Shown here: positions 30,001 through 49,125 of the stretch, piece by piece
Layout: each line of letters begins with the position of its first letter
How positions within the stretch are numbered: the stretch's first letter is position 1
Assembly (NCBI GenBank): GCA_001464765.1
Contig: LNDV01000025.1
Location: 247,679 to 311,678, forward strand
From: Betaproteobacteria bacterium Ga0077526
GTDB lineage: Bacteria > Pseudomonadota > Gammaproteobacteria > Burkholderiales > Ga0077523
Direction of reading: 5' to 3'
DNA: 64,000 nt
Program-made: the position numbers and the translations under genes
The notes under the pieces: generated by a model
The model's database searches: none
Told to the model about the DNA's origin: nothing
The model's input: only the letters and a program-made list of their open reading frames with translations

Positions 30001-30071
30001 ACGATTGCCGCGCATCACGAGAGGGTTGACCGGCCTTCCCCCCCTTCTGTATAGTGCGCGGCTTTCCAAGT

Positions 30072-30147
<76 letters not shown>

Positions 30148-30169
30148 CTTAGTTTGACCGCAGTACCGG

Positions 30170-30245
30170 GTCCCCATCGTCTAGAGGCCTAGGACATCGC
30201 CCTTTCACGGCGGTAACCGGGGTTCGAATCCCCGTGGGGACGCCA
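30170..30245 (+). tRNA. tRNA-Glu (anticodon TTC)
   Basis: GTCCCCATCGTCTAGAGGCCTAGGACATCGCCCTTTCACGGCGGTAACCGGGGTTCGAATCCCCGTGGGGACGCCA, with anticodon loop CTTTCAC. Confidence 0.9.
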
Positions 30246-30249
30246 ACGA

Positions 30250-30280
30250 ACAAAGCCACCTTCCAGGTGGCTTTTTTCGT
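30250..30280 (+). terminator. Intrinsic terminator after the tRNA-Ala/tRNA-Glu pair
   Basis: AAAGCCACC-TTCCA-GGTGGCTTT stem-loop followed by TTTTT. The same hairpin recurs in every copy of the repeat module. Confidence 0.7.
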
Positions 30281-30285
30281 TGGTG

Positions 30286-30708
30286 CTCCCCGAGGGGATG
30301 CAGAACCCCGACAAGGGGTCGACCACGACGCACCGCGTCGTGGGACGCCGCACCAGCGGCGGTCCCGCGCCATCGGACGCGGGATGGACGGATCGCCACA
30401 AGGCGAGACGGATACACCAAAACGCACTGCGTTTTGGGACGCCGCTCCGGCGGCGGTCCTGCGCCGTCGGGCGCAGGATGGACGGATCGCCATAAGGCGA
30501 GACGGACACAATCCCCGTGGGGACGCCAAAACACGAAAGCCACCCATCGGGTGGCTTTCTTGTTTTGGTGTTCCCGCAGGGGATGCAGAACCCCGACAAG
30601 GGGTCGACCACGACGCACCGCGTCGTGGGACGCCGCCCCAGGCGGCGGTCCCGCGCCACCCGGACGCGGGATGGACGGATCGCCATGAGGCGAGACGGAC
30701 ACAAACCC
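30286..30708. repeat. Tandem array, locus 1, of ~150-nt structured repeat units (two full and one partial) with interspersed terminator-like hairpins
   Basis: The unit core GGGGATGCAGAACCCCGACAAGGGGTCGACCACGACGCACCGCGTCGTGGGACGCCGC...CGGACGCGGGATGGACGGATCGCCATAAGGCGAGACGGACACAATCCCCGTGGGGACGCCAA is repeated at 30286-30416 and 30571-30708, with a partial copy at 30437-30528. Each unit ends in a 19-nt mimic of the tRNA-Glu 3' end. Confidence 0.8.
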
Positions 30709-30744
30709 CCACAGTATTCCCACCAAATCAGTCACTTCGGCCTT

Positions 30745-31248
30745 TCATTTGCTTGGACGCATGGCCGTGTCTAGCTGATGTCTAAAATTCGGAGCGGTGT
30801 AAAGGTCCGAGGGCGCTGATCGCCCCCCGACACTGCGTGGATCGATCGCGAGTTCTGAGACATCTGCCGATGAAATGCGAGATTGCACACTGATGCGTTC
30901 GCATCCGCGCGGCGAGACGTTGCGAGCCCCCACACAGCGCTCACCACAATCCGTGTCGATTGCTGGCACGGTGACGGCGAACTCGTCGCTGCCACGACGC
31001 CAGCGCACCGGCAACCTCCCCATCAGTTCAGCATCGGGATCGCAACTGTTCGCGCGTGGATCCACGCGGATCTCCGCAAACTCCGCCAGCGTCTTCTCGC
31101 TCTTGAATGCAGCCAACGCTACCTTCGCCTTGAAGGCTGCCGTGCCTCCTTTTGGGCCTTCTCTCGTCAATGCTCCTTTTTCGGGCGACACCGTGGCCGA
31201 TGAGAGCAGAGACTTCAGTGATCCGCCAGTCCCGTTTCCTGGAACCAC
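30745..31248 (-). CDS. Hypothetical protein (doubtful)
   Basis: 167-codon ORF in a lower-GC stretch just inside the putative island. No domain and no clear SD. It may be non-coding. Confidence 0.2.
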   Translation of the reverse strand: MVPGNGTGGSLKSLLSSATVSPEKGALTREGPKGGTAAFKAKVALAAFKSEKTLAEFAEIRVDPRANSCDPDAELMGRLPVRWRRGSDEFAVTVPAIDTDCGERCVGARNVSPRGCERISVQSRISSADVSELAIDPRSVGGRSAPSDLYTAPNFRHQLDTAMRPSK

Positions 31249-31346
31249 CTCTGGAAAACCGCGTTCACTGGAGCCAAGCTATCGCATAACCGGTCCAGCT
31301 TCGTCCAGCGCGGGACCATGCGTTTCTGCTCGATGCTGTGCGCCTC

Positions 31347-32252
31347 TCACTGAACGAGTCCAACAGCTACCACCATCGAAGGCGCCTTCTCCAATACGCT
31401 TTGCGCGACCGACCCCAGCAACAAGCCCGTGACCGGGCCAAGCCCGCGTGTTCCCATCACGATGATGCCGTACGCGCCTTCCCTTGCAGTCTCGATAATG
31501 GCGATGTGAGCGTCATCGCCGACAACCACGTGCTCTGTGTATGCCACACCCGCTCGAGTGAGCGCACCGCGGGCTCCAGCCAGCGCTTCCTCCACACGCT
31601 TGCCTGACCAGACCTCGACTACCTTCTCGCGTGGACCAAGAATGGTACTTGCCAAGGTAAGCCCGGGCTCGACATGCACCAGTTGCACCTCGCCGTTGCA
31701 CAACAGCGCAAGGCGTGAGGCAAACGCCGCTGCGCGCATTGCGCTCTCCGAGCCATCGACCGCCAACAGCAATCGCGGCGGCAAAACGGGTGGGGGGTTA
31801 TCCGCAGCGCGCACTATGAGTACCGGAATGGTGGCTCTCCGGATTACTTTGGTCGATGTCGAGCCCAGAAGCGCGGCGCGGACGACCCCCAGACCGCGCC
31901 TTCCCATCACAATCGCATCGCAGGACAGTGCTTGCGCGCGCGTGACGATCGCGCTGGCGGCATCGTCTATCTGCTTTTCGATCTCGAACGGGATCGAACT
32001 TGAACGCATGACCGTCGCTGCTTGCCCGAGGATGTCAGCCGCACTGCGGTCGCGTTCGTCCAAAGCTACTCTGGCTGGTGCGAGTATGCCGACTTCACCG
32101 GACATGACGGGCTTTTGGACACTGAGGAGAGTACAGCGCAGGCGGCTCCCGTCAGCGCCAATCTGCGTGACCCAGCGCACTGCGGCTAGCGAATGCGCGG
32201 ACCCATCCACGGCAACGAGAAAGTGAAGCTCTTGGTTTCTTTCAGCGGTCAT
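31347..32252 (-). CDS. Universal stress protein, tandem UspA domains
   Basis: Two Usp domains (FLVAVDGSAHSLAAV..., LLLAVDGSESAMRAA...) with GxxGxG-like ATP motifs (MGRRGLG, MGTRGLG). Confidence 0.85.
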   Translation of the reverse strand: MTAERNQELHFLVAVDGSAHSLAAVRWVTQIGADGSRLRCTLLSVQKPVMSGEVGILAPARVALDERDRSAADILGQAATVMRSSSIPFEIEKQIDDAASAIVTRAQALSCDAIVMGRRGLGVVRAALLGSTSTKVIRRATIPVLIVRAADNPPPVLPPRLLLAVDGSESAMRAAAFASRLALLCNGEVQLVHVEPGLTLASTILGPREKVVEVWSGKRVEEALAGARGALTRAGVAYTEHVVVGDDAHIAIIETAREGAYGIIVMGTRGLGPVTGLLLGSVAQSVLEKAPSMVVAVGLVQ

Positions 32253-32313
32253 CTCTTTCCTCATGAGAAAGGCCGAACTACGGCATACCTTTCGATCCTT
32301 GCGGACGCTGGTC

Positions 32314-35046
32314 TCAGAGCGCACGCACCGTGCGCAGGCGCAAACGTAGCTGCTTCTCTACTTCAATGATGGCAAACAACGCGATGCCGACAAGTACGAT
32401 GAGCAGCCCGTCCAGCAATGGCACCGATTCGGTCCCCAATACCGCTTGCAGCGGTGGAAGGTAAGTGATCGAAAACTGGGCGACCGTGATGATGATGACC
32501 GTCAGCCACACCACCTTGGTACCACGCACTGCTCTCCAGGTAAGCGAGGTTGCATAGATGTTGCGAATGAAGAACAGATGGAAGATCTCCATGACGACAA
32601 GTGTGTTGAGGGCGATGGTGCGGGCAAGCTCGACCGAGTAGCCGCGGTCGATCGCGTAGGCGAAGATGCCGAATACGCCGCAAACGAACAGAACAGCCAC
32701 CAGCACGATGTGCCACACCAGCTCTCCGTTGAGCAGGGGTTCGTTGCGAGCGCGGGGCGGACGGCGCATCGTTCCGTCCTCCGTCGGCTCGAACGCCAAT
32801 GCAACGCCGAGCGTGACGGCGGTAATCAGGTTGATCCACAGGATCTGCACCGGCGTTACCGGCAACGTCATCCCCACGAGCAGCGCCGCGACAATGGTCA
32901 TGGCTTCGCCTGCGTTGGTGGGAAGCGTCCAGCTGATGACCTTCTTGATGTTGTCGTAGACCGTCCGCCCCTCCCGGACGGCCGCGACGATCGACGCGAA
33001 GTTGTCGTCCGCCAGCACGAGTTCCGCGGCCTCCTTAGCGGCCTCGGTGCCCTTCTTGCCCATCGCGATACCCGCATCCGCCCGTTTCAGCGCCGGCGCG
33101 TCGTTCACTCCGTCACCGGTCATGGCGACGCTGATGCCGTGTGACTGCAGCGCCATGACCAGGCGGAGCTTGTGCTCGGGGCTGGTGCGGGCGAAAACAT
33201 CGGTCTCCAGCACCGCGCCGGCAAGCCTCGGGTCGTTCATGGCGTCAAGATCGACGCCGGTGAGTACCTTCTCCGGATTCAGCAAACCGATTTGCCGAGC
33301 GATCGCCCTTGCAGTTCCCGCATGATCGCCAGTAATCATCTTCACGCGAATGCCCGCGCTATGGCATTCGCCCACTGCTGCAATCGCCTCCAAGCGCGGC
33401 GGGTCGATCAGTCCGACCAGCCCGAGCAGTGTCAACGTGCCTTCGACTTCCGCGTGGTCGAGAACCGTGCGCTCTGGCAACACGGGTAGTGACGCGAGCG
33501 CGAGCACGCGCTGACCTTGCGAAGCGATGCGGTCGGCGGATTCGTGCCAGAACCTCGCCTCCAGGGGCTGCACCCCACCCGAGGCCGATCGTTGCTCCTT
33601 GCACATGGAGACGATCCGCTCCGGCGCGCCCTTCACGAAGACGAACGCATGCTCTTCGCGGTCATGATTCAACGTGGCCATGAAACGATGCTTGGCATCG
33701 AAGGGGATGGCGTCGGTGCGGGTCCAGGTGATGCGCTCATCGCGCCAGTCGACGCCGGCCTTACCAGCCAATGCGAGGAGTGCACCTTCCATCGGGTCGC
33801 CCTCCACCGTCCAATCGCCTTCGTGCTCGCGCAGCGATGCGTCGCTGCACAAGGCAGCGACACGGCCCAGTTCGGCCAGCATCGGGTGTTCGATGGCTGC
33901 GATCGCGCGCCCCCCAAGGAAGATCTCACCTGCAGGTGCGTAGCCCGCGTCCGGAACCACATACACGCCAGCAACGGTTGCGACAGACGCCACGGCCATC
34001 TCGTTGCGTGTGAGCGTGCCGGTCTTGTCCGTACAGATCACCGACACCGAACCCAGCGTCTCGATGGCAGGAATTCGCCTGACGATGGCGTTGCGCCGGG
34101 CCATGGCGTGCACGCCGATGGCGAGGGTGATGGTCATAACGGCCGGCAGCCCTTCGGGTATCGCGGCCACGGACACTCCGACCACCACCATGAGCATGTC
34201 TGCGAAGGGGTAGTGGCGGACGAAGTAGCCGAAGGCGAGCAGGATCGCGGCGACTAACAGGATCACCAGGGTCAGCCAGCGGGCGAACACGTCCATCTGC
34301 TTCACCAGCGGCGTCGTCAGTGCCTCGACGGTCGAGAGCATCCCGCTGATGCGCCCAATCTCGGTCGCCGCCCCCGTGGCGACCACCACGCCTTTGCACT
34401 GGCCCGTGGTGACGAGCGTGCCGCTGAACGACATGCAGGTCCGGTCGCCCAGCGCCGCGCCCTTGGAAACCGGTTTGACGCCCTTCTCCACCGGTATCGA
34501 TTCGCCGGTGAGGATGGCCTCTTGAACGAATGCGCCGTGCGTCACGACAATCCGCACATCGGCGGGCACCTTGTCGCCGGCCTCGAGCAGCACGATGTCC
34601 CCGGGCACGAGCGCCTCACCGTCCACCGTCTGCCGTTCGCCGCCGCGCAGCACCGCGGCGCGAGGGGCAAGCATCCGGCGTATGGCTTCCATGGCCTTCT
34701 CTGCCTTGCCTTCCTGGACGAAGCCAATGACTGCGTTCGCGATCACCACCGCGAGGATCACCGCCGTGTCCGCCATGTGATCCAGCGCGAGCGTGATCAC
34801 GGCCGCCCCCAGCAGCAAGTAGATCAGAATGTTGTGAAACTGCAGCAGAAAGCGCATGAGTGCGCCTCGCCTTGGTCGCTCGGGGAGGCGATTGGGGCCG
34901 TAGGTCTGGAGCCGTGCCTGCGCCGCGTCTGTGCTCAAACCCGACGGAGTGGTACTCAGCTCGGCAAGCACTGATTCCACGGAACGGTCATGCCAGCTTG
35001 GCATGGTCGTCGTCGACGTGTCGTTCGGTACCGTCGACTCACGCAT
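32314..35046 (-). CDS. Cation-translocating P-type ATPase (type II, Ca2+/Mg2+-like), 910 aa
   Basis: DKTGTLT phosphorylation motif, TGES, MITGDH, GDGVNDAPALK, and 10 TM helices. Confidence 0.9.
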   Translation of the reverse strand: MRESTVPNDTSTTTMPSWHDRSVESVLAELSTTPSGLSTDAAQARLQTYGPNRLPERPRRGALMRFLLQFHNILIYLLLGAAVITLALDHMADTAVILAVVIANAVIGFVQEGKAEKAMEAIRRMLAPRAAVLRGGERQTVDGEALVPGDIVLLEAGDKVPADVRIVVTHGAFVQEAILTGESIPVEKGVKPVSKGAALGDRTCMSFSGTLVTTGQCKGVVVATGAATEIGRISGMLSTVEALTTPLVKQMDVFARWLTLVILLVAAILLAFGYFVRHYPFADMLMVVVGVSVAAIPEGLPAVMTITLAIGVHAMARRNAIVRRIPAIETLGSVSVICTDKTGTLTRNEMAVASVATVAGVYVVPDAGYAPAGEIFLGGRAIAAIEHPMLAELGRVAALCSDASLREHEGDWTVEGDPMEGALLALAGKAGVDWRDERITWTRTDAIPFDAKHRFMATLNHDREEHAFVFVKGAPERIVSMCKEQRSASGGVQPLEARFWHESADRIASQGQRVLALASLPVLPERTVLDHAEVEGTLTLLGLVGLIDPPRLEAIAAVGECHSAGIRVKMITGDHAGTARAIARQIGLLNPEKVLTGVDLDAMNDPRLAGAVLETDVFARTSPEHKLRLVMALQSHGISVAMTGDGVNDAPALKRADAGIAMGKKGTEAAKEAAELVLADDNFASIVAAVREGRTVYDNIKKVISWTLPTNAGEAMTIVAALLVGMTLPVTPVQILWINLITAVTLGVALAFEPTEDGTMRRPPRARNEPLLNGELVWHIVLVAVLFVCGVFGIFAYAIDRGYSVELARTIALNTLVVMEIFHLFFIRNIYATSLTWRAVRGTKVVWLTVIIITVAQFSITYLPPLQAVLGTESVPLLDGLLIVLVGIALFAIIEVEKQLRLRLRTVRAL

Positions 35047-35432
35047 CAGATCTTGACCTTTGAGATGCGATCGAACCGAAATTCAACAGACCCTGGCCGC
35101 AGCGCCTCACAGGACCTGTCCGCGGCCGACATCACGAAGCGCGTGCGCTGTCGTCCTCTCCCACCAACCGCGATCACGGTCAAGCCGGAGGCGCTCGGCG
35201 CTGACTCTTCGTGCCATGTCCGTCTGACCAGCCATGAAATGCGGACGTTGGTTCCAGGCGGCAACATGTTCGATGACAGGACTTGTCAGGTGAAGCAGAG
35301 GAGCGCTGCTACAGAGTAAGCCGTGCGCTTGGCGCCTAGATGCTCGGTAAGCACGATGACGGCACGTGCAGCCTTGACCGAGACGACGTGCGTTGATCGG
35401 CGTGAGCGGTTGCTGCGCATCCCCTGGTCGGC

Positions 35433-36302
35433 CTATTTGACCACCGTCACCGGTACGTCGGCGCTGTGGATCGTCTTGTAGGCGGTAGACCCGAGGACCA
35501 GCGCCGCCATCCCGCCGAGCCCTCGTGATCCCATGACGATATGCGCGAAGCCATGCGACTTCGCTGAAGCACCAATCAGGTTCGCCGGATCGCCGCAGTC
35601 GACGGCGATTGCATACGGAATGCCCGCCGCGTCGAGCCGGCGGCGGGCGATCTCGGAGAACTGCGCCGCGTGCTCCTGCTGGTGCTCCACAATCGCCTCC
35701 TGCGACAAACCTCGCGTCTGCCATTCCACGACCGGCTCCTGGACATTGAGAAGCTTCACCTGGGCACCGACGTGCCCTTTGGCGCGACCGATAACGTAGC
35801 CCAAGGCGCGATTCGCGTGCTCCGATCCATCGACCGGCACCAGCACGGGGGCGAACAGCGACGACCATACACTGGTGTCCTTGACCAACGTGACGGGTAG
35901 CTGAGAAAGGTGCACGACCTGCGTTGCGACGGAACCGAGCACGAGATTGCCGAGGGCGCCCATTCCTCGTGACCCCATCACGATTTCCGTGCAGGCCGAG
36001 TCCATCGCGTGACGAGTGATGGTCTCCCCGATATGGCCGCGCAAGAGGTGCGACTGGTAGCCAATTCCCGTTTGACCTAGGAGCGCGCAGAACGGTCGTA
36101 GCGTGTCTTCGCCGTAGGCACGCAGGGCTGTTTCGATCGTGTCATCCGAGAGGTGCGCACGAACCAAACCGGACTCGACTCGAGGCTGGACATTGAGAAC
36201 GTCGATCGTGGCCCCCGGGCAGCGTTTCGCAAGGTCGATCCCAAAGCGTAGCGCCTGCATAGCAGCATCCGATCCGTCCACGGGAACGAGTATCTTGTTC
36301 AT
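35433..36302 (-). CDS. Universal stress protein, tandem UspA domains
   Basis: MNKILVPVDGSDAAMQAL... and VLVPVDGSEHANRAL..., with MGSRGMG and MGSRGLG. Confidence 0.85.
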   Translation of the reverse strand: MNKILVPVDGSDAAMQALRFGIDLAKRCPGATIDVLNVQPRVESGLVRAHLSDDTIETALRAYGEDTLRPFCALLGQTGIGYQSHLLRGHIGETITRHAMDSACTEIVMGSRGMGALGNLVLGSVATQVVHLSQLPVTLVKDTSVWSSLFAPVLVPVDGSEHANRALGYVIGRAKGHVGAQVKLLNVQEPVVEWQTRGLSQEAIVEHQQEHAAQFSEIARRRLDAAGIPYAIAVDCGDPANLIGASAKSHGFAHIVMGSRGLGGMAALVLGSTAYKTIHSADVPVTVVK

Positions 36303-41452: not shown

Positions 41453-43864
41453 ATGCCCTGGCGACTATGGACGGAGACGACATTGAGAGACTCGCGCAGA
41501 AACTCCCTACGACTGAGCATCACAGCAGGATTCATCACCATCATTGTGACGGGCTCGAGCTACGGCAACGACAATCGATGGTTCGGAGGTATAGGAACGT
41601 GGGAAACCGGCGCCAATTGGAGTCTGCTTCGCCCTCCGACGGAATCCGACCGCGCCGTCGTCAACATCGGCACCAGCCAGTTCTCGACACCGATCACGGT
41701 GGGTGGGTTTCGCCTGGGAAGTGCCAGCCTGTCAGGCACCGAAGACTTCGTTGTTGCCGGGGATGCCACCTGGGCCGGAGGCACCATGGGTGGCACAGCG
41801 CACTACACGTTCAGAGGAAACACGACCATCTCGACGAACGTGTCGAAGTGGCTCGGCGACCAAGCCGTATTGTCTCTCGCAGGCAATACAACCTGGGCCC
41901 GAAACACGATTGTCGACGGCAACACGATCAACCTTGTCGGGACCGTACTCAACAACAATGCGGTTTTCTCCGATCAGAACACGTTCGACACCTCGATATC
42001 CGGTGCGCTCTTCAGCAACGCGTTCAACAACAACGGAACGTACCGCAAGAGCGGCGGCAGCACCACGTGGATTTCGGCGGCGTTCAACAATACCGGGTCG
42101 GTCTTGATCGAGCGTGGGATCTTGCGGCTAAGCGACGGGACTTCCTCCGGCGGTAGGTTTTCCGTCGCCAACGGGGCGGTGCTCAGACTAACAGGCCCCT
42201 ATTCGCTCAACGGAGCCGGGATCGAGGGTCCCGGACTTGTCGAAATCGCCGGCATTCTGGTCAGGATGAGCGATAGCACGATCTCCGCGCCGGTCCAGAT
42301 GACTCCCGGCAGCGTTCTCACTGGTAGTGGCGCAACCTTCAGCCATTCCCTAACCTGGTCGGGCGGTCTGATTTCGGGATTCGGCACATTTCGGTCGGAG
42401 GGAGGCACACGAATCACCGGAGACGAGGCCAAGTATCTGGACGGGCGTGTCACGGTTTTCCTCGCAGGCGACACCACATGGGATGGAAACACTGGAGATA
42501 CCGGCAACGAAATCGTTTTCAATGGCGGCACGTTCAAGAATCAGGCAACGTTCACCGACTCGAATTCGTTCAGCTCTTCGATCAGGGGAACTGCGGGAGA
42601 CAGCACTTTCGAGAACTCGGGCACATACCGCAAGACTGGGCCCAGGACCACGGCGATCCAGATCGGCTTCGAGAATTCCGGGGTTGTCGATATCGTCGCC
42701 GGCTCGCTTTCGCTGCGAAACGCCCGCGGGTCAGGCACCTTCAACGTCAACGCGGATGCCCAACTCCTTCTGGGGTCGAGTCGTCTCGGGAACGCAGCAT
42801 TTCGAGGGGACGGCATCGTCGAGTTAAGTGGATCTCAACTCCTTAACGGCACCTCCTTTTTCACACCCGTGACAGTCTCCGGAAGCACCACGATCCTCGG
42901 CACGGGCGCCACTTTCCAGGGCCCCGTGAACTGGACGGGAGGCTCATTCGCGGACGCCGGGACCTACCGCTGGCAAGGTACCAACCGACTCTCGGCGTTT
43001 ATGTTTCTGAGTGGAGGAGCCACGCTGATCTTGGACGGGAATACCGCGTGGACGACGGATCCCGTAACTTCGAGTCGCAATATCGTCTTCGTTGATGGGA
43101 CGCTCATCAACCGAGCCACATTAACGGACGACGAGGCATCGGATACCAGCATGCTGGATCGCGGCGGTTCGAATGTCTTCAATAACCGGGGCCTCTACAG
43201 AAAAGCAGGGACCGGGACAACAACGATTCAAGTCAACCTCGTCAATTCGGGACAAATGGACTTGAGCGCGGGAACACTGTCTTTATCGTCCGCGTTCGAC
43301 AACGCCGGGCTTATCTCCATAGGAGAAGGCGCTGTGTTGGCATCGACGCGTGGAGGCGTCTCGAATGCGACAACCGGAGTTGTCTCTGGGGCCGGAACCA
43401 TAGTGCTTTCGGGGGGCTCGTTTCGCAACGACGGCCGACTTGCACCGGGAGGTGTCATGACGGCAGGACAACTTGCCATCGACGGAAATCTGGTGATGGG
43501 CGCCGAAAGCGTCCTCGAGATAGGCGTCACCGATGTTCTGTATTTCGATACGCTGGCGGTGTCCGGAAGCGTCCTCCTGAACGGACGGCTCGTGTTGCGC
43601 GGGTTGACAGACTTCATTCCCGGTCTGGGCGACAGCTTCCGTGTTCTGACAAGCAATGGTGGCCAAATCGAAGGCGGAGCCTTCTCCGCCATCTCGTGGG
43701 AGGGCCTGCAGGGCATTCGCTTTGACGCGACTTACAACGCCCATGACGTCACACTAAACGTTGTAGCGATCCCCGAGCCGTCCACTCAGTTCTTGATGCT
43801 GGCCGGCACCTTCATGGTAGGAGGCCTGGCCTTGAGACGAAAGCGCAGGCTAGACGCTCGCTAA
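41453..43864 (+). CDS. Large PEP-CTERM protein with beta-helix-like repeats (803 aa)
   Basis: Repetitive G/T/N/S-rich modules (...NNNGTYRKSGGSTTWISAAFNNTGSV..., ...NSGTYRKTGPRTTAIQIGFENSGVV...) and C-terminal VAIPEPSTQFLMLAGTFMVGGLALRRKRR, the PEP-CTERM anchor. Confidence 0.8.
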   Translation: MPWRLWTETTLRDSRRNSLRLSITAGFITIIVTGSSYGNDNRWFGGIGTWETGANWSLLRPPTESDRAVVNIGTSQFSTPITVGGFRLGSASLSGTEDFVVAGDATWAGGTMGGTAHYTFRGNTTISTNVSKWLGDQAVLSLAGNTTWARNTIVDGNTINLVGTVLNNNAVFSDQNTFDTSISGALFSNAFNNNGTYRKSGGSTTWISAAFNNTGSVLIERGILRLSDGTSSGGRFSVANGAVLRLTGPYSLNGAGIEGPGLVEIAGILVRMSDSTISAPVQMTPGSVLTGSGATFSHSLTWSGGLISGFGTFRSEGGTRITGDEAKYLDGRVTVFLAGDTTWDGNTGDTGNEIVFNGGTFKNQATFTDSNSFSSSIRGTAGDSTFENSGTYRKTGPRTTAIQIGFENSGVVDIVAGSLSLRNARGSGTFNVNADAQLLLGSSRLGNAAFRGDGIVELSGSQLLNGTSFFTPVTVSGSTTILGTGATFQGPVNWTGGSFADAGTYRWQGTNRLSAFMFLSGGATLILDGNTAWTTDPVTSSRNIVFVDGTLINRATLTDDEASDTSMLDRGGSNVFNNRGLYRKAGTGTTTIQVNLVNSGQMDLSAGTLSLSSAFDNAGLISIGEGAVLASTRGGVSNATTGVVSGAGTIVLSGGSFRNDGRLAPGGVMTAGQLAIDGNLVMGAESVLEIGVTDVLYFDTLAVSGSVLLNGRLVLRGLTDFIPGLGDSFRVLTSNGGQIEGGAFSAISWEGLQGIRFDATYNAHDVTLNVVAIPEPSTQFLMLAGTFMVGGLALRRKRRLDAR

Positions 43865-43904
43865 GGATCCACCGGGGGCTGCACCCGCTCGGCTGGCTGG
43901 GACA

Positions 43905-44102
43905 GGTCGACCCAAGCGCACCGCGTCGTGGGACGCCGCCCCAGGCGGCGGTCCCGCGCCATCGGACGCAGGATGGACGGATCGCCATAAGACGAGACGG
44001 ACACAATCCCCTTGGGGACGCCAACGAACAAAGCCACCTTCCGGGTGGCTTTTTTCGTTAGTGCTCCCCGAGGGGATGCAGAACCCCGACAAGGGGTCGA
44101 CC
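43905..44102. repeat. Locus 2 of the structured repeat family: partial unit, tRNA-Glu 3'-end mimic, terminator-like hairpin, and the head of another unit
   Basis: ...CACCGCGTCGTGGGACGCCGCCCCAGGCGGCGGTCCCGCGCCATCGGACGCAGGATGGACGGATCGCCATAAGACGAGACGGACACAATCCCCTTGGGGACGCCAACGAACAAAGCCACCTTCCGGGTGGCTTTTTTCGTTAGTGCTCCCCGAGGGGATGCAGAACCCCGACAAGGGGTCGACC. Confidence 0.8.
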
Positions 44103-44265
44103 CGCCTGCCGTTTCGAGTATCAACGGCTCTTGGAGAGTCGCGTCCTGGATGGATGAGACTCGACGCCGCAGTTTAAACGGCTCAGGGGGCAAGCACTCC
44201 AAGTGAGCGCGCCGATCCGCCCAAATGAGCCCCCGCCGCTAGAAAGCGCGGCAGGGGGCTCACCC

Positions 44266-45402
44266 TCAACGCAACGTCACCAACCCGTTCAACACCTGGT
44301 CCAGACCGCCGAACACCGAGATCTTGTCGATGCGCTCGGCAATGCGTTCCAGAGTCTCGAGTTCCTTCATCCGCAGCGCCACCGGACTGCCTTCCATCAC
44401 CTTGGCCGTGTTCAGCAACGACCGGGTGGCTGCCGTCTCTTCGCGTCGCCGAATCGCGTTGGCCTCGGCTGCTTTCTCGGCCTCGACGACCTGTGCCAGG
44501 ATCGTTCTCATCTCTCCCGGCAGGACAATGTCCTTCACCCCGACGCCATCCACCTCGATCCCGTGGGGCTCGAGCCTGGACCGCACGTGGGCCGACACCA
44601 CGTCATCGATCACCGACTTGTTCTCCAGCAACTCGTCGAGGGTGCGCGTACCGACCGCCGAACGCAGACCGAACTGGCACTCCCGGTACAGAATGTCCGC
44701 CGGCTTGGCCAGTTGCTTGAAGGCCTTCAGAACGTCCTGAAAACGCCAGGTGGCCGACAGGTTCAGACGCAGACTCACCTTGTCCCGGGTAAGAATCTCC
44801 TGGCCGGTGATCTCCAGCACCTGGAGACGCATCTCCACGACGGCGACCGCCACGTCCCGGTTGAACTTCCAGAACGCGTACGTGCCCGGGGCCAGCATCC
44901 GATCGATCACACCATCGATCCACAAGACACCGGCGCCGTGTTCCGGCACCTGCACCTGATGCACGCCCGCCAGACCGGCAACCGGGCGCACACGAGCGGG
45001 CGACTGCAGCAGCCGCGAGGTCAGTGCAGCCGGCACTTCAGCCGACTCAGCGATGTCGATCACCTCGACGCCCACATCCACCTGCCCTTTCCAGTACAAG
45101 CCCCGGGTACTCGGGGCGAGCACTTCGACCAGCACGCCGTTCTCGGTGCGCAACCCGACCTGAGTCTCGGAGAGTTCGACTCGTACGAACTCCTCGGCGA
45201 CCAGCGCCGGCTCCTTCGCCATGAAGTAGTCTGCAAGCGGATGGACGAACGCGGGGCGCTCCAGGGCAAAGGTCTCCACGGCCCAGGTGTCGATGCCGTT
45301 GAACACCCAGTGCTTGCCGGGTCTCAGCAGGCGGTCGAAGTCGCCGTTGCGAAACAGCAACGCGCGTTCGTTCTTCTTCACAGTGATACGTTGAATCTTC
45401 AT
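44266..45402 (-). CDS. SPFH/band 7 domain protein (stomatin/flotillin-like)
   Basis: 378 aa with a central SPFH domain and a C-terminal coiled-coil rich in E/A/R (VVEAEKAAEANAIRRREETAATR). Confidence 0.8.
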   Translation of the reverse strand: MKIQRITVKKNERALLFRNGDFDRLLRPGKHWVFNGIDTWAVETFALERPAFVHPLADYFMAKEPALVAEEFVRVELSETQVGLRTENGVLVEVLAPSTRGLYWKGQVDVGVEVIDIAESAEVPAALTSRLLQSPARVRPVAGLAGVHQVQVPEHGAGVLWIDGVIDRMLAPGTYAFWKFNRDVAVAVVEMRLQVLEITGQEILTRDKVSLRLNLSATWRFQDVLKAFKQLAKPADILYRECQFGLRSAVGTRTLDELLENKSVIDDVVSAHVRSRLEPHGIEVDGVGVKDIVLPGEMRTILAQVVEAEKAAEANAIRRREETAATRSLLNTAKVMEGSPVALRMKELETLERIAERIDKISVFGGLDQVLNGLVTLR

Positions 45403-45681
45403 GGGACTCTCCTTGTCCTCTTGGGTACTGATGAATGGGTGCCGTTACAGCGAAGGCGGCGGACACCGAGTGCCGTGAACCGGGCCAACCGGAGAACCTG
45501 GGCAGCCTCCCCTGAGAAGGCCACTTCGGCTGTCTGACGGCGCAATTCGGGCGAGCCCATTGCCTGGCCACCTCCACTGACGGGGATGGGATTCCCACGA
45601 GCCGGCACAGCCACGAGGCTGTTCCAGCGCCGCAATCGGCCCATCACCCGCGTTCGGCGGGGTACTTCCAATCGCACTGTA

Positions 45682-45750
45682 TGGAGCGGGACTCGAACCC
45701 GCGACTCGCGACGGTTTAGATCGCTGCTCTACCTGACTGAGCTATCCGCA
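45682..45750 (-). pseudogene. tRNA-like sequence (a): canonical D-arm and T-arm, aberrant anticodon loop, unpaired acceptor stem
   Basis: Minus strand: CTGCGGA-TA-GCTC-AGTCAGGTA-GAGC-A-GCGAT-CTAAACC-GTCGC-GAGTC-GCGGG-TTCGAGT-CCCGC-TCCA.... The 3' acceptor strand does not pair with the 5' strand, and the anticodon reads AAA. Confidence 0.45.
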
Positions 45751-45754
45751 GTAA

Positions 45755-45807
45755 GGGTCACCCGGGACTCGAACCCGGCACCTTTCAGTGCAACCGTTGA
45801 TGACCCC
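45755..45807 (-). pseudogene. tRNA-like fragment (b): T-arm plus a pairing acceptor stem only (~53 nt)
   Basis: GGGTCAT...CCGGG-TTCGAGT-CCCGG-GTGACCC-T. The D-arm or anticodon arm is missing. Confidence 0.4.
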
Positions 45808-45999
45808 CTATCCGCTGCATCCGGCGACGCGACATATGCGGCCACGACGGACATTGCCGGTTGCCGCACATCGGCGGGGCGGGCGTTAACCCGAACCCCT
45901 GACCTGTGAGCGTTCGCCCTCAACAGCAGATTCTTCTATCCCCGAGCATCGCTGCTCGGTAGAAATTCTTTCGGCATGCCCGCGCTCCCGCATCGAGGG

Positions 46000-46071
46000 C
46001 ACGCCCGGGTGGACTCGAACCACCGACCTCGACCTTCGGAGAGTCGCGCTCTTCCTCTGAGCTACGGACGT
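46000..46071 (-). tRNA. tRNA-Arg (anticodon CCG)-like; structurally complete with A1-U72 and G73, no encoded CCA
   Basis: ACGTCCG-TA-GCTC-AGAGGAA-GAGC-G-CGACT-CTCCGAA-GGTCG-AGGTC-GGTGG-TTCGAGT-CCACC-CGGGCGT-G. All stems pair, with one U-G. It sits inside the island next to the decayed copies. Confidence 0.55.
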
Positions 46072-46164
46072 GTCGTCGGGCCTTGGGCCCCCGCCAGGCG
46101 CTCCCCGACAGCGCCGCGACGCCCACACTGTCTCGGCTCCGCGCGGAACGTCGTCTGCGGGTTG

Positions 46165-46234
46165 TGCCCCGTGCACGATTCGAACGTGCGACCTCCGGAT
46201 TCGTAATCCGGCGCTCTCGCTCCGCTGAGCTATC
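46165..46234 (-). pseudogene. tRNA-Arg (anticodon ACG)-like sequence (d) lacking a pairing 5' acceptor strand
   Basis: ...TA-GCTC-AGCGGAGCGA-GAGC-G-CCGGA-TTACGAA-TCCGG-AGGTC-GCACG-TTCGAAT-CGTGC-ACGGGGC-A. The 7 nt upstream (TTACTGA) cannot pair with ACGGGGC. Confidence 0.45.
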
Positions 46235-47257
46235 AGTAACGGTCGCGGCGCGCCTGGACACACCCGAAGGGGAGCGGATGGCTCGCCTCACCAGCACGGC
46301 CGTGGCAACGCCACGTTCTTCGCTCGGTGCGACTCCGCCTCCCATGCAAGGTCGATCCACGGCCAGAGCCGAGACCGCCTTGCGCCAAATTGTCAAAGGA
46401 CGTTCGCCGACGAACGGCGCTGCGATCCCTCGACCGCAGATCTGCGAGGTGGCGCGGACCAAACAGGGTGAAACGAAAAACAAAAAGCCCGGATCCTTGC
46501 GGATTCCGGGCCTCTGCGAGCAGAGCGTGGACGGTGCGCGCTAGGCGCTACCCTCCCCCGGAAAAGTCGAAATCCCTCGCCGTTGCCATGTCGGAAAATG
46601 CCCCACAACAGCCGGCACCGACACCACGCGCCATCCCTTCGGGCATGGCATCCCGACACCGCGCATGCGCGCACACGGACCGATGCTCGGTCGGAATGCG
46701 GCAGGGGTCGGGCGGAATACGTCGTTTGCGTTCATGGGAGCGACAGCGCCTAGGCGCCAGCGTGGGTCAGCGATGGCGAGAAATGTAAATACTATTTACT
46801 TTCCCGTCAACCCCTTTGTCGAATCTGCGCGAAATGCGGGGCGGCGCACGCCGATCGCGTTCGTGGCGATCGAGGGCGAAGCCCGCGTGTCCCTTCCGCG
46901 GACGCCGAAATCCCGAGGCGTTGGTTGATCCCCCCGATCGCCTGACCTGCTCCCCGCCCGCAGACTGGCGCGACGTCGGGTCATCGTGAAGAGAAGCGAC
47001 GCAACCAACCACGCCGCACGTCACCGGAGCGTCTTGCACTGGTCTGCATTCGGGGCGCTCCCAGGCATGCAGATGCGGCCGGCCGGACAGTTTTCAGCAG
47101 GCGATCTCCGACACTTCGCCGAAAAATCTCGTATCTGACTGACCGGGCCCGAACGGTCTTCGAGAGCGGCCTGATTGTTGGCCGTCGAGGGGTCCGCGTT
47201 GTCGCGGAATTCCCCGCTGGCCCAGGCTGATCGCGCTATTGAGTCGAATACAAACCC

Positions 47258-47830
47258 ATGAAAACCTACGATATCCACGAAGCTGCCGAATTCCTGAAAA
47301 TCGATCGCACGACCGCCCTGGAACTCGCCGGATCTAGTGAACTTCCCGGGGCAAAGGTGGGACGTTCCTGGGTCTTCCTGGAGTCGGATCTGATCGAGTA
47401 CCTCCGCGATCGGGTCCGCCAGCAAACCAACGAGCGTCGGGCGCTGGTTCGAACCCAGGCCCTGGCGATCCCAGGCCACCCCGCGGAGGGCCCACCGCGA
47501 CGACGGCGTCGCCGCCCGCCGCCTTCGCTGGACGATGTCACCGTCCCGGCCAGCCCGCCCGCCCCCCCCGCCCCCCCCGTTCCTCAAGCACTGGGAATGG
47601 GTGAACAGGGCGCCATTCGCTTCGAGGTCGCTAAGTGGAGTGGGCTGACTCCCGGACTTCGGGCGCGGAGCACGCCGGCGCCAATGAAACGGACCGATGG
47701 CTTCGCATCCGCAATGGCGGAGTTTCCAGGATGTAGTCGCACGTGCCGAGGATCGAGGAGAACCTCAACGGCCGCCCGCCCCTTGAGCAAGACAGCCGAC
47801 CGCCAGAACGCGGAGACCCCGCTCGAATAG
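47258..47830 (+). CDS. Helix-turn-helix DNA-binding protein (excisionase/AlpA-like HTH_17) with a low-complexity Pro/Arg-rich tail
   Basis: MKTYDIHEAAEFLKIDRTTALELAGSSELPGAKVGRSWVFLESDLIEYLRD is the HTH_17/Xis-type motif. The C-terminal 120 aa are low complexity and may be over-extended. Confidence 0.55.
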   Translation: MKTYDIHEAAEFLKIDRTTALELAGSSELPGAKVGRSWVFLESDLIEYLRDRVRQQTNERRALVRTQALAIPGHPAEGPPRRRRRRPPPSLDDVTVPASPPAPPAPPVPQALGMGEQGAIRFEVAKWSGLTPGLRARSTPAPMKRTDGFASAMAEFPGCSRTCRGSRRTSTAARPLSKTADRQNAETPLE

Positions 47831-48042
47831 CAGTCGGTGCAGCGTCGCAACGCTCACGCCGAACTCCTGCGCAAGCGCAGCGTTACCGTATGGCCGAGAC
47901 CGTCAGGGCGGAACGCGCCAAATTCCTTACCTGCTAGCGGGTGCCCCCGTGAGCGCGGATACCGTGACTGGCCGGGGCGGAATGGCGATTATTGCCATTT
48001 CATGCCATTTCTGGCACCGTTACACGATCTAGGAGGTACGCT

Positions 48043-48303
48043 ATGCAAAGCATGAACATCTCGCTGCCTGACCCACTCAAGCAGTTCGTAGACGGCCAGG
48101 TTTCGACGGGGCGCTACAGCAGCGCGAGCGAGTACGTGCGCGAACTCATCCGCGCTGACGAGAAACGCAAGGCCGAAGAGCAACTCGAAGCCAAGCTCCT
48201 AGAAGGTTTGAGCAGCGCTGACAGCGAGCTGACCCCCGCGGACTGGAATGCCATCCGCAAGGAAGCCCTGGCCAAGGTCGAAGCGCGAAAGCAAACGCGC
48301 TGA
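48043..48303 (+). CDS. parD: Type II antitoxin, ParD family (ribbon-helix-helix)
   Basis: AGGAGG SD. Sequence MQSMNISLPDPLKQFVDGQVSTGRYSSASEYVRELIRADEKRKAEE. Confidence 0.85.
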   Translation: MQSMNISLPDPLKQFVDGQVSTGRYSSASEYVRELIRADEKRKAEEQLEAKLLEGLSSADSELTPADWNAIRKEALAKVEARKQTR

Positions 48304-48308
48304 AGCCG

Positions 48309-48626
48309 ATGGTCCGCAAGCGCGAGGGGGCGCGGCGCGACCTGGTCGAGCACTTCGTCTATCTGGCGGAGAACGCCGGGCTCGACGTGGCCGAACGCTT
48401 CCTGAGCAACGCCGAAGCCACCTTCGGCGACCTTGCGCAGCAGCCCAGGATCGGCGCGCCGCTCAACCTGCAGCGCCCTGAGCTGGTCAACCTCCGCAAG
48501 TGGCGAATAAAGGACTTCGACAATCACCTCGTCTTCTACGAGCCACGCCCGGATGGGGTGTCCATCGTGCGTGTGCTGCACGCGGCCAGCGACTGGTGGG
48601 GCCTACTGGGACTGGCAGACACCTGA
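48309..48626 (+). CDS. parE: Type II toxin, ParE/RelE family
   Basis: 6 nt downstream of the parD stop. Sequence ...RRDLVEHFVYLAENAGLDVAERFLSNAEATFGDLAQQPRIGAP...WRIKDFDNHLVFYEPRPDGVSIVRVLHAASD is the ParE fold signature. Confidence 0.8.
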   Translation: MVRKREGARRDLVEHFVYLAENAGLDVAERFLSNAEATFGDLAQQPRIGAPLNLQRPELVNLRKWRIKDFDNHLVFYEPRPDGVSIVRVLHAASDWWGLLGLADT

Positions 48627-48666
48627 CGCTCCCGTGGCGAATGGCGACAATCGCTGCCCGCTGGCA

Positions 48667-48709
48667 TTTCACGGCGGTAACCGGGGTTCGAATCCCCGTG
48701 GGGACGCCA
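48667..48709 (+). repeat. Direct repeat of the 3' 43 nt of tRNA-Glu(TTC), from the anticodon loop to the 3' end; putative attR of the island
   Basis: TTTCACGGCGGTAACCGGGGTTCGAATCCCCGTGGGGACGCCA is identical to 30203-30245. The 5' half of the tRNA is absent. Confidence 0.8.
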
Positions 48710-49125
48710 ACGAACAAAGCCACCTTCCGGGTGGCTTTGTTCGTTGGTGCTCCCGCAGGGGATGCAGAACCCCGACAAGGAGTCGACCACGACGCACTGC
48801 GTCGTGGGACGCCGCCCCGCGGCGGTCCTGCGCCATCGGGCGCAGGATGGACGGATCGCCATAAGGCGAGACGGACACAATCCCCGTGGGGACGCCAAAA
48901 CACAAAAGCCACCCAATAGGTGGCTTTTTTCGTTGGTGCGCCCCGAGGGGATGCAGAACCCCGACGAGGGGTCGACCACGACGCACCGCGTCGTGGGACG
49001 CCGCCCCGCGGCGGTCCTGCGCCACCGGACGCGGGATGGACGGATCGCCATAAGGCGCAACGGACACAATCCCCGTGGGGGCGCCAGTAAAAACAGCGGC
49101 TTAGGCCGCTGTTTCCATTTCTAGC
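48710..49125. repeat. Locus 3 of the structured repeat family: terminator hairpin plus two full units, each ending in the tRNA-Glu 3' mimic and followed by a hairpin
   Basis: Units at about 48749-48897 and 48939-49085. Hairpins at 48710-48748, 48898-48938 and 49091-49115 (AAACAGCGGCTTAGGCCGCTGTTT). Confidence 0.8.

Follow-up and report, generated by a model that had tools for sequence, protein, structure and literature searches.

An apparent integrase-less island remnant at tRNA-Glu is framed by arrays of a structured repeat with tRNA-matched ends

Results

Layout of the tRNA-Glu locus

We analyzed a stretch of 64,000 nucleotides (the window) from Betaproteobacteria bacterium Ga0077526. A tRNA-Ala/tRNA-Glu operon is followed here by an array of structured units, two segments of cargo genes separated by a unit fragment, and a second array.

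30026-30055, plus strand: sigma-70-like promoter (TTGACC-18-TATAGT) driving the tRNA-Ala/tRNA-Glu operon
30072-30147, plus: tRNA-Ala(GGC)
30170-30245, plus: intact tRNA-Glu(UUC) (TTC gene)
30246-30279, plus: terminator T1 (hairpin 30252-30274 and T-run)
30280-30528, plus: unit W1 (anti-tail, small hairpin Hm, two tandem cores, tail)
30529-30564, plus: terminator T2 (hairpin 30535-30559)
30565-30709, plus: unit W2 (5' arm and core complete)
30710-43904: island segment 1 (three Usp proteins, P-type ATPase, CPA2 antiporter, IS630, 803-aa PEP-CTERM-like protein)
43905-44023, plus: partial unit W3 (H1 damaged, H2-H4 intact)
44024-44102, plus: T1-type terminator, then 5' module (anti-tail and Hm) of a further unit
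44103-48666: island segment 2 (SPFH, decayed tRNA-like cluster, HTH_17 protein, ParD, ParE; GC 0.643)
48667-48709, plus: half tRNA-Glu, attR-type, exact copy of the 3' 43 nt (30203-30245)
48710-48743, plus: second copy of T1
48744-48897, plus: unit W4, the best-preserved copy (closing helix, Hm, H1-H4, 19/19 tail; 178.9 bits)
48898-48932, plus: second copy of T2
48933-49086, plus: unit W5 (tail 18/19)
49087-49125, plus: terminator T3 (AACAGCGGC..GCCGCTGTT), of a type unlike T1 and T2
49126-55500: continued atypical composition (223-aa protein, PAS-GGDEF-EAL, alpha/beta hydrolase, 209-aa protein)

No promoter-like site other than the one listed was found in 29900-30900. A preliminary description of this DNA had correctly placed the intact tRNA-Glu gene and the exact copy of its 3' 43 nt, and had taken this 43-nt direct repeat as the delimiter of the interval. 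The real flanking repeats are longer, because homology extends through the terminator and two units of about 150 nt: the arrays at 30203-30709 and from 48667 to about 49074-49086 are colinear over 0.4-0.5 kb, and a third fragment lies at 43905-44102. Similarly, the extra copy of the tRNA's final 19 nt (the 'tail', 30227-30245) that had been noted near 44005-44025 is present at 44005-44023 with 18/19 matches, but it is not the only one. Instead of three tails there are six, starting at 30227, 30510, 44005, 48691, 48879 and 49068, against a chance expectation of about 0.03.

In the left array, W1 carries two tandem 94-nt cores (30325-30418 and 30419-30509) before its tail (30510-30528, 19/19 compared to the tRNA). 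A tail on the left, T1, and an anti-tail on the right together form a palindrome of about 73 nt, and the same arrangement recurs as inverted repeat I3 at 48694-48760. The right-hand units W4 and W5 are 92% identical to each other. The homology of W2 to the right-hand array ends within the tail (AAACCCC), and unrelated DNA begins at 30710. W3 starts with the palindrome GGTCGACC, which marks the boundary between 5' module and core, and the 5' module of the further unit at 44024-44102 breaks off directly after the same palindrome. All three internal junctions of the island are module boundaries of the unit: 30709/30710 lies within a tail, and GGTCGACC marks both 43904/43905 and 44102/44103. T3, which also ends the one-unit array of a related locus (L004), is probably the native terminator of the tRNA-Glu locus.

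Architecture and covariation of the unit

The unit is about 150 nt long and contains five internal hairpins (Hm, H1-H4). Its 5' arm, the anti-tail, is imperfectly complementary to the 3'-terminal 19 nt of the upstream tRNA; it is followed by the 4-bp hairpin Hm and the motif CGACC, by H1, H2 and H3 with covarying stems, and by the nearly invariant H4 (GGAUGGACGGAUCGCC-N4-GGCGAGACGGMCAC) with two tandem G.A motifs. The 3' arm, the tail, copies tRNA positions 58-76 (A58 to CCA). An intrinsic terminator follows every unit, and no promoters were found inside the units. The window holds six core copies, all on the plus strand, where none would be expected by chance; their tandem arrangement is that of one metagenome assembly. 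No Rfam family matched the unit, and neither ARAGORN nor the tRNA and tmRNA models recognized it. The unit is probably a new structured RNA or DNA element, and an element of this kind, with tRNA-tail-matched ends, has apparently not been described so far.

H1 occurred in five different versions, each of which is fully Watson-Crick. In the model alignment, 91.9% of the cells were paired compared to 39-49% when the partners were slid by 1-3 columns, and double (compensatory) changes were found in 21 of 49 pairs, matched by none of 500 shuffles. W4 folded with -95.4 kcal/mol (z = -7.2), and the L003 unit reached z = -6.2. The plus strand folded better than the minus strand by 10.5 kcal/mol, and the intact copies contained 19 G.U pairs versus 5 A.C mismatches, with one G.U pair being invariant. 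Both measures point to the plus strand as the structured one. We infer a function as RNA rather than as single-stranded DNA from this strand asymmetry and the terminators. Between the window and the orthologous locus L009, identity was 85% for the unit and 94% for T1, but 64% for the Ala-Glu spacer and 78% for neighboring coding DNA, which may be a sign of selection on the unit and T1.

The unit behind other tRNA genes

In other uncultured Burkholderiales, the core follows tRNA-Ser(CGA) (L002), tRNA-Gly(CCC) (L003), tRNA-Ser(GGA) (L005) and tRNA-Glu (L009 and L004), with a core identity of 63-88% behind the four different tRNAs. The units of L002, L003, L005 and L009 occur without an island or mobile gene. 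The tail matched the adjacent tRNA in 17-19 of 19 positions at every locus except for the decayed copy of L004 (13/19), whereas comparison with tRNAs from other amino-acid families gave 10-13 of 19; the tails of the two Ser loci are similar. For each anti-tail, the best pairing partner was the local type of tail (Glu, Gly, Ser). Copy number varied from 1 in L004, whose array has only the terminators T2 and T3, and 1.5 in L009 to 2.5 + 2 in the window. Among the relatives, L009 alone reads through the locus, with tRNA-Glu and 1.5 units followed by unrelated genes. The empty site suggested in the preliminary description, with 30245 running into about 49126, was not found in any relative. L022 has the integrase att but no unit; because of this, and because the L002 and L003 units lack mobile genes, the unit is separate from the integrase att. 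In scans for exact patterns, which missed L009, a core 24-mer occurred in only 1 of 185,579 species genomes, and three metagenome contigs contained a core pattern of 29 nt with 23 bases specified. No copies were found in plasmid, phage and viral collections.

Cargo, composition and the missing integrase

Searches with Pfam, PHROGs and tRNA models agreed with the cargo reported in the preliminary description (three tandem-Usp proteins, P-type ATPase, CPA2 antiporter, IS630, 803-aa protein, SPFH, HTH, ParDE and tRNA-like genes). Pfam assigned the transposase gene to IS630/DDE_3 and gave a weak PEP-CTERM match for the 803-aa protein, PHROGs classed the HTH_17 protein as excisionase-like, and the tRNA-like cluster lies on the minus strand at 45678-46232. 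The excisionase-like gene and ParDE are located at the island's right end and were counted in favor of an island. Segment 1 has a GC content of 0.616 and a GC3 of 0.67-0.80; for the whole interval, GC3 is 0.67-0.86 versus 0.87 for core genes. The lower GC proposed for the interval was therefore confirmed inside it, but is not limited to it: the genes at 49151-55173 have a GC3 of 0.70-0.78, so that atypical composition extends to about 55.5 kb and does not end at 49125. At the distal end of the L004 locus, past the integrase island, lies a homologue of the beginning of the 209-aa gene.

As described before, the interval lacks an integrase. Pfam searches on all sizeable ORFs identified no integrase or fragment in 30.2-49.1 kb, a six-frame Pfam search found no remnants in the unassigned stretches, and tblastn with the L004 integrase detected none in the window. 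In L004 and L022, a tyrosine integrase gene (Pfam Phage_integrase, 1e-30) abuts a half tRNA-Glu with the same boundary nucleotide as 48667, and the left edge of the copy at 48667-48709 falls into the anticodon loop. Judged by this shared boundary, the right edge at 48667 is a genuine, canonical anticodon-loop-type attR. With this edge and no surviving integrase, the earlier view of an immobilized island remnant at tRNA-Glu is supported: the interval looks like a horizontally acquired, integrase-less mosaic, that is, an ordinary decayed island.

Discussion

In many respects, the locus resembles tRNA-integrated genomic islands and their integrase-less derivatives (cis-mobilizable elements, CIMEs, known from the accretion of Streptococcus ICEs). 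Shared features are an intact tRNA at one end and its 3' part as a direct repeat at the opposite end, an anticodon-loop crossover boundary, atypical composition, a toxin-antitoxin system, an excisionase-like gene and the lack of an integrase. In contrast to these, the flanking repeats in the window measure 0.4-0.5 kb and consist of an independent structured element, and the internal boundaries are not att cores. The ends of the unit recall RNAs with tRNA-like ends (the tRNA-like domain of tmRNA, viral tRNA-like structures, mascRNA and the engineered 'tRNA scaffold'), in which the ends pair as an acceptor/T-stem-like helix with an NCCA end and enclose a foreign structured domain. However, the unit lacks the T loop and the 5' strand of the T-stem, its CCA and discriminator base are paired with the 5' leader, and its helix copies the adjacent tRNA and has no fixed identity.

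The preliminary description had interpreted the 19-nt copies as scars of stacked integrations. They are instead the 3' arms of a conserved unit, and the scar interpretation is not supported since this unit also occurs behind tRNA-Ser, tRNA-Gly and tRNA-Glu without islands and is absent from the L022 att. In full, it would take the tails as core sites of T-loop-type integrations, the sequence to their left as the P arm of protein-binding DNA sites, and the arrays as stacked attR remnants of elements otherwise deleted, which we consider improbable. The tail does begin in the T loop, at position 58, and for tRNA-targeting integrases this is a classic site of crossover; tail and terminator are duplicated in an attR-like manner, core and tail stand at the end of island segment 1, and the integrase-bearing islands of the relatives use tRNA-Glu. 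Yet at four independent loci a single unit stands between a pair of terminators, with no further remnants of an element and no mobile genes, covariation is seen in stems H1-H4 and in the closing helix but would not be expected of protein-binding arms, the inverted tail copy is left unexplained, and the integrase family seen targets the anticodon loop, with its L022 att free of the unit. That the whole order of array, segment 1, fragment, segment 2 and array is a chimeric assembly path, stringing together alternative strain-specific insertions at one tRNA-Glu locus, appears quite improbable. The window is indeed a metagenome contig (JGI 3300002461), six short-read contigs from the source organism and relatives all stop at tRNA-Ala, and an independent contig of the right flank stops within W5. 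However, the three array copies differ (the extra core at the left, the H1 damage in W3 and point differences), so the joins do not run through identical sequence, and units, half tRNA and cargo would be real even if their order were wrong, and they recur in the L004 and L009 assemblies.

A period of about 189 nt (terminator, anti-tail, core, tail) might also be a non-autonomous miniature element that homes to tRNA 3' ends, a reading we regard as unlikely, as we do its conceivable route: integration of a folded single strand whose anti-tail:tail stem mimics the double-stranded target, or an integrase acting in trans, with arrays built by repeated integration beside the tRNA. In the CTX-phage-type hairpin attP, a stem of inverted target copies mimics the double-stranded target (dif), and integrated copies lie in tandem beside it. 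The unit likewise has two inverted target copies about 100 nt apart that are able to pair, and tandem copies next to the target; here, however, the target is a tRNA 3' end and not dif, the spacer is a conserved multi-hairpin, there is no phage genome, and nothing points to Xer or another recombinase. Such an element would fit the rare and patchy distribution of a core that is yet 63-88% identical behind four tRNAs, the local origin of both tail and anti-tail, the copy number differing among close relatives, the strong structure as a single strand of either chemistry, and the right-hand order of T1 (with the unit nearest the tRNA), T2 (with the next) and an outermost, probably native T3, of which L004 has only T2 and T3. 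On the other hand, the element has no known recombinase, replication gene or circular form, plasmid, phage and viral collections are devoid of copies, no mechanism would re-tailor tail and anti-tail to a new tRNA, and each unit's terminator resembles the local one, which fits local duplication better than arrival from elsewhere. It is very improbable that the core is a scaffold whose 19-nt tail or anti-tail either guides it to the tRNA gene, in the way of TnpB omega-RNA or of the homing crRNA in CRISPR transposons, or serves a tRNA-primed reverse transcriptase as primer-binding site. A conserved scaffold plus a variable 19-nt 3' end with the sequence of a DNA target close by would suit a guide, and the anti-tail is complementary to tRNA positions 58-76, the same 3'-terminal 18-19 nt, ending at 58/59, to which primer-binding sites of retroviruses and LTR retroelements are complementary. 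But the tail pairs with the anti-tail, no Rfam omega-RNA or crRNA matched, and no TnpB, IscB, Cas12, Tn7-like or reverse-transcriptase gene lies in the window interval or beside any unit; the unit locus also lacks LTRs, the complementarity is incomplete, and the tRNA end recurs in the same sense 130 nt downstream.

We favor two superimposed things, a decayed integrase-less island and a structured repeat family, a reading that we hold, with its inferred mechanism, at about even confidence. In this mechanism, the unit, which has no promoter of its own, would be transcribed by read-through from the upstream tRNA operon. Its RNA would adopt a multi-hairpin fold whose closing helix imitates the acceptor/T-arm end of the neighboring tRNA, and this tRNA-like helix may provide tRNA-like 3'-end trimming and stability. 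A terminator after each unit and the lack of an internal promoter speak for read-through, and there is a precedent in the dual-terminator sRNAs RrA, RrB and RrF at the ends of E. coli rRNA operons (PMC8144298). These, too, are short conserved structures flanked on both sides by intrinsic terminators where a stable-RNA operon ends, but have no sequence relationship to the unit, which follows tRNA genes in tandem arrays with ends copied from the upstream tRNA. Against read-through, good terminators would leave little read-through RNA, and the right-hand array has no upstream tRNA promoter. In the closing helix, the 5' leader is paired with GCCA, a pairing reported to hinder RNase P (PMC9433436); a simple story of tRNA-like processing is therefore not clean. 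By the exact-pattern scans, the unit is too rare for a housekeeping RNA. The model does not account for one core behind four tRNAs, each with tail, anti-tail and terminator of local origin.

Under the favored two-part reading, units would multiply locally by duplication of the period of tail, terminator, 5' module and core. The resulting direct repeats of 0.2-0.5 kb would supply homology and perhaps also fragile palindromes, and joining, duplication and rearrangement of acquired DNA would have taken place there. We propose that every internal island junction falls on a module boundary because the unit repeats provided the joining sites. The fallback of the preliminary description, a structured repeat mediating the rearrangements, comes closer to these junctions than its scar reading. 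The best explanation for the arrays that frame and subdivide the island is that they belong natively to the region 3' of certain tRNA genes in this group of uncultured Burkholderiales.

Repeat arrays of a structured unit flank the tRNA-Glu island

Two adjacent tRNA genes, both recognised by ARAGORN and Rfam, stand at the left end of the island, which the preliminary description had placed at 30170-49125 and bounded by a 43-nt repeat:

30072-30147, tRNA-Ala(GGC)
30170-30245, tRNA-Glu(UUC)

The copy of the tRNA-Glu 3' portion is present as described (48667-48709 equals 30203-30245 at 43/43 positions, with the left edge in the anticodon loop), and the interval has the island-type arrangement, with an intact tRNA on the left and its 3' portion directly repeated on the right. 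However, sequence reading and alignment showed that the repeat does not end after 43 nt, as homology extends across a terminator hairpin and a pair of ~150-nt units. Similarly, the copy of the 19-nt tRNA end AATCCCCGTGGGGACGCCA that had been taken to split the region does lie at 44005-44023 on the plus strand, but further copies occur at 30510, 48879 and 49068 as well. Allowing at most one mismatch, the window holds six copies, all on the plus strand, where 0.03 would be expected by chance.

To describe the arrays, we use b for the tRNA 3' half up to position 57, t for the 19-nt tail, T for a terminator, m for the 5' module and c for the 94-nt core:

Module layout of the window
30203-30709, left array: tRNA-Glu(..b t) T1 m c c t T2 m c t*
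30710-43904, island segment 1
43905-44102, fragment between the segments: (GGTCGACC) c t T1 m
44103-48666, island segment 2
48667-~49074, right array: b t T1 m c t T2 m c t T3

The left and right arrays are colinear, the left one having one additional core. Three internal junctions can be placed: 30709/30710 falls within a tail, while 43905 and 44102 lie at the palindrome GGTCGACC between m and c. In the first window copy, W1, two 94-nt cores (30325-30509) stand in tandem without tail, terminator or 5' module between them, and these twin cores differ by compensatory changes in hairpins H1 and H3 (CACGACGC/GCGTCGTG versus CAAAACGC/GCGTTTTG and CCCGCG/CGCGGG versus CCTGCG/CGCAGG). At L005, a unit-bearing locus of another uncultured Burkholderiales member, a single complete unit is followed by a further terminator and a further 5' module (1893-1975). 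The latter is broken at the m/c boundary (GGTTCAAAC), the same boundary as in the window fragment 44058-44102, and the DNA beyond it contains an ORF. Breaks or duplications may recur at this m/c boundary.

Unit ends match the neighbouring tRNA

Pattern scans of public genomes and metagenomes located the core on four other contigs, and a look-up of a flanking protein added a fifth. In these loci the unit follows different tRNAs:

Unit-bearing loci in other uncultured Burkholderiales
L002, unit downstream of tRNA-Ser(CGA)
L003, unit downstream of tRNA-Gly(CCC)
L004, unit downstream of half tRNA-Glu
L005, unit downstream of tRNA-Ser(GGA)
L009, unit downstream of tRNA-Glu

An intact tRNA gene and its terminator precede the unit in four of the five loci, L004 having only the tRNA-Glu 3' half, and a terminator of its own lies 3' of the unit in all five. 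The tail is identical to the last 19 nt of the local tRNA at 17-19 of 19 positions, except in L004, where it is decayed (13/19). Against tRNAs of other amino-acid families only 10-13 positions agree, and the two Ser tails are alike. The 5' arm is an imperfect reverse complement of the local tail type, and the terminators before and after the unit are alike within a locus and different between loci. As tails, terminators and 5' arms are bound to the locus, the unit divides into local parts (tail, terminator and anti-tail) and common parts (the small hairpin and the core).

The surroundings are ordinary chromosomal genes in L002 (serS, SLT, tRNA-Ser, unit, GGDEF-EAL, flhD) and L003 (penicillin amidase, tRNA-Gly, unit), and in L009 the tRNA-Glu with 1.5 units is followed directly by unrelated housekeeping-type genes. 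Exact-match scans returned one locus in genomes and three in metagenomes and missed L009, which is one base off the pattern, so the family is larger than these counts. The covariance model R1 found no extra copies elsewhere in the window or in the other loci searched, and blastn in distant mode gave no match to a unit in plasmid and phage collections. In viral contigs, a first pattern scan gave 0 matches and a relaxed pattern 5, all due to chance and without model match or nearby tRNA. Nothing scored when a six-frame pseudo-protein of the unit was compared with a collection of 5.8 billion proteins for ORFs wrongly called over other arrays.

The units share a conserved structure

RNAfold predicted one shared architecture for each unit, in which a closing helix of ~18 bp, formed by the first ~20 nt with the tail, encloses a 4-bp hairpin followed by the hairpins H1, H2 and H3. 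H4 is a long irregular hairpin with two tandem G.A motifs in the almost invariant GGAUGGACGGAUCGCC-N4-GGCGAGACGGMCAC. H1 occurs in five different versions, all of them fully paired, and H4 shows compensatory changes from A.G/G.A to C-G/G.U in L009 and to G-C in L002-L005. In an alignment of ten copies, which was fitted to the covariance model, 91.9% of the cells are paired, compared to 39-49% with the partners slid by 1-3 columns. Double-sided changes affect 21 of the 49 pairs in this fitted alignment and were matched by none of 500 shuffles; H1 and the closing helix are legible in the raw sequences. Folding gave -95.4 kcal/mol (z = -7.2) for the plus strand compared with -84.9 kcal/mol (z = -4.5) for the minus strand, and intact copies contain 19 G.U pairs versus 5 A.C mismatches, with one G.U pair being invariant. 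Between the window and L009, orthologous identity amounts to 85% in the unit, 94% in T1, 64% in the Ala-Glu spacer and 78% in adjacent coding DNA. The unit family is thus well supported as a conserved structure.

All units are rich in GGA triplets, with 8 in the window copy W4 against ~3 expected from base composition by a hand estimate. Four of the triplets, within GGGAC and GGAUGGACGGAUC, are kept in nearly all loci, L009 having GGC at one of them. This richness is probably the cause of weak Rfam matches to rsmX and RsmW (E = 0.1-6). As a sign of Hfq/CsrA binding, the eight triplets of W4 are only suggestive. A CsrA/RsmA-type partner is conceivable, although most GGA triplets in the units are predicted to be paired.

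The unit is distinct from the att of an integrase family

At L004, where synteny is rearranged, the half tRNA-Glu directly adjoins genes for a 432-aa tyrosine integrase, a PriCT-2 primase and an antitoxin. An integrase 93% identical to that of L004 adjoins the same half tRNA-Glu at L022, in another chromosomal context (9780-9880, minus strand). Here, another terminator stands 3' of the half tRNA and the unit is absent, so tRNA-Glu loci occur both with and without units. In both cases the half tRNA begins at the window's TTTCACGG in the anticodon loop, a canonical crossover sublocation. The 43-nt half tRNA is therefore a real att boundary of this integrase family, which Burkholderiales metagenome genomes commonly carry. 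The unit is distinct from that att and no part of it, because the att occurs without it in L022 and units stand among ordinary genes in L002, L003 and L009. A tblastx comparison of the L004 island with the window island revealed no homology except the units.

The preliminary description had noted the lack of an integrase in the island, and the search for remnants bears this out: Phage_integrase, Recombinase and Resolvase had no Pfam match in the sizeable ORFs of the interval or in its six-frame-translated unassigned DNA, and the L004 integrase as tblastn query against the window found nothing below E = 0.3. With att repeats on both flanks and without recombination genes, the interval 30.2-49.1 kb shares these two traits with CIME-like elements, which are integrase-less and att-flanked. 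Pfam confirmed the reported cargo of three tandem-Usp proteins, a P-type ATPase, a CPA2 antiporter, an IS630-type transposase, SPFH, ParD and ParE, together with an 803-aa protein with a weak PEP-CTERM end and an excisionase-like HTH_17 protein. The IS630-family transposase (DDE_3 and HTH domains) is located at 39887-40918 within island segment 1. Island segment 2 contains a decayed tRNA-like cluster (45678-46232, minus strand), which resembles what is left of a tRNA array of the phage or ICE type:

45678-45751, minus, odd 'Phe(AAA)' tRNA-like gene
near 45770-45790, minus, lone T-arm
45997-46072, minus, good tRNA-Arg(CCG)
46173-46232, minus, truncated Arg(ACG)-like gene

The island is also lower in GC, as had been proposed (0.616-0.643 versus 0.677), and GC3 is 0.67-0.86 in island genes versus 0.87 in core genes. 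Its right limit at 49125 did not hold: genes at 49151-55173 are as atypical as the island (GC3 0.70-0.78), so the compositional anomaly continues to ~55.5 kb. The stretch 49126-55500 encodes a 223-aa unknown protein, a PAS-GGDEF-EAL protein, a hydrolase and a 209-aa unknown protein. At L004, a homologue of the 5' end of the 209-aa gene (55056-55171) stands at the distal end of the locus, past the integrase island. Given this homologue and the atypical composition, the true variable region may comprise ~25 kb. Taken together, the island at tRNA-Glu is of an ordinary kind, a decayed mosaic that lacks an integrase. The earlier account of its structure was right in part and missed the main feature, the ~150-nt unit family with tRNA-matched inverted ends.

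The locus is a systematic assembly breakpoint

The window comes from one metagenome contig, and its segment order is that of one assembly. Six contigs from independent short-read assemblies of the organism and its relatives (L006, L007, L008, L013, L014 and L015) end at or just before tRNA-Ala, and one further contig ends within the window copy W5. The segment order is therefore provisional, and assemblies break systematically in the tRNA and unit region. Differences among the array copies speak against a trivial collapse. For an empty site, we inspected DUF748 homologues: the contigs of 6/7 relatives stop at tRNA-Ala, and a complete genome with a 50%-identical homologue has no tRNA at the corresponding position. 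L009 is colinear with the window through tRNA-Glu and the units and then continues with genes that the window lacks. Neither these contigs nor L009 yielded an empty site. A small, extremely acidic ORF of 45-47 aa (MTKTELKEQNDALRNLLMEIRDMIDSELEAMDDYDEDEEEEEEDEED; window ~29857-30003, L006 5908-6051, L009 13841-13984) separates the DUF748/AsmA-like gene from tRNA-Ala and is conserved in all relatives that were inspected, including those with as little as 50% DUF748 identity.

Discussion

With Rfam 15, only tRNA matches reached gathering thresholds in the whole window, and at E <= 10 no match in 48600-49200 exceeded 24 bits, all being far below family thresholds. ARAGORN and the Rfam tRNA/tmRNA models recognised no tRNA or tmRNA in any unit, and a word search of the literature found no tRNA-tail-matched repeat. 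The unit family is absent from Rfam. In a MITE or IS-derived repeat, copies would share conserved terminal inverted repeats and have a short target-site duplication; here, anti-tail and tail vary with the adjacent tRNA, and the duplicated flank of ~55 nt consists of tail plus terminator. For the guide of an RNA-guided nuclease or transposon, TnpB, IscB, Cas or Tn7-like domains would be expected, and none occur in the window interval or beside the L002 and L003 units. A pseudo-tRNA whose T loop is interrupted by an insertion was suggested by GGGGTTCGA upstream of the core, which is T-arm-like in the Glu and Ser(GGA) units. This reading is ruled out by L002 and L003, whose GTCCGACC and GTTCGACA at that position cannot pair with the local T stem. 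As the 5' arm is complementary to T-loop bases 59-60, it represents a genuine inverted tail copy rather than the 5' strand of the tRNA itself.

An architectural precedent is provided by the RrA/B/F-type sRNAs of E. coli, which lie between the dual terminators of rRNA operons and are made by terminator read-through (PMC8144298). In the window, the unit likewise lies between two terminators (30252-30274 and 30535-30559) downstream of a stable-RNA gene, a layout that recurs in L002, L003, L005 and L009. The anatomy, the covariation, the tRNA-specific ends, the terminator after every unit and a single promoter-like site, upstream of tRNA-Ala with none belonging to the units, form the basis of the following model. 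The unit would be transcribed by read-through of the tRNA terminator, as are the E. coli sRNAs (PMC8144298), and its RNA would fold into several hairpins with a closing helix that mimics the acceptor/T end of the neighbouring tRNA. This mimicry would probably confer tRNA-like 3'-end trimming and stability, and the invariant H4 is likely the functional or protein-binding part. Arrays may enlarge as the period t-T-m-c is duplicated. Along with the ~73-nt palindromes of tail, terminator and anti-tail, they could offer homology and fragile sites at which acquired DNA has been joined and rearranged.

The read-through model does not explain how one core came to stand behind four tRNAs with locally derived ends, and we therefore keep a mobile-element reading alive, involving either integration in trans or a folded single strand with a target-mimicking stem. 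In the most far-reaching reading, the units would be a new class of self-propagating RNA/ssDNA element that homes to tRNA 3' ends and on arrival gains a direct and an inverted copy of the last 19 nt (58-76) plus a copy of the local terminator, the tandem arrays being hot spots of foreign-DNA capture and reshuffling; we consider this unlikely.

Decayed tRNA-linked islands are common, and the island by itself adds little. The repeat that frames it is a well-supported conserved structure missing from current RNA family libraries, and its arrays break short-read assemblies here in six data sets that are independent of each other. Where tRNA 3' ends recur as short copies close to tRNA genes, these are not automatically integration scars, a caution relevant to island-prediction software keyed on such repeats. 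To our knowledge, no other bacterial non-coding RNA or repeat has ends that track the identity of the neighbouring tRNA. These ends call for a mechanism, be it mimicry of the tRNA end that serves processing, a device for homing or copying from a template.
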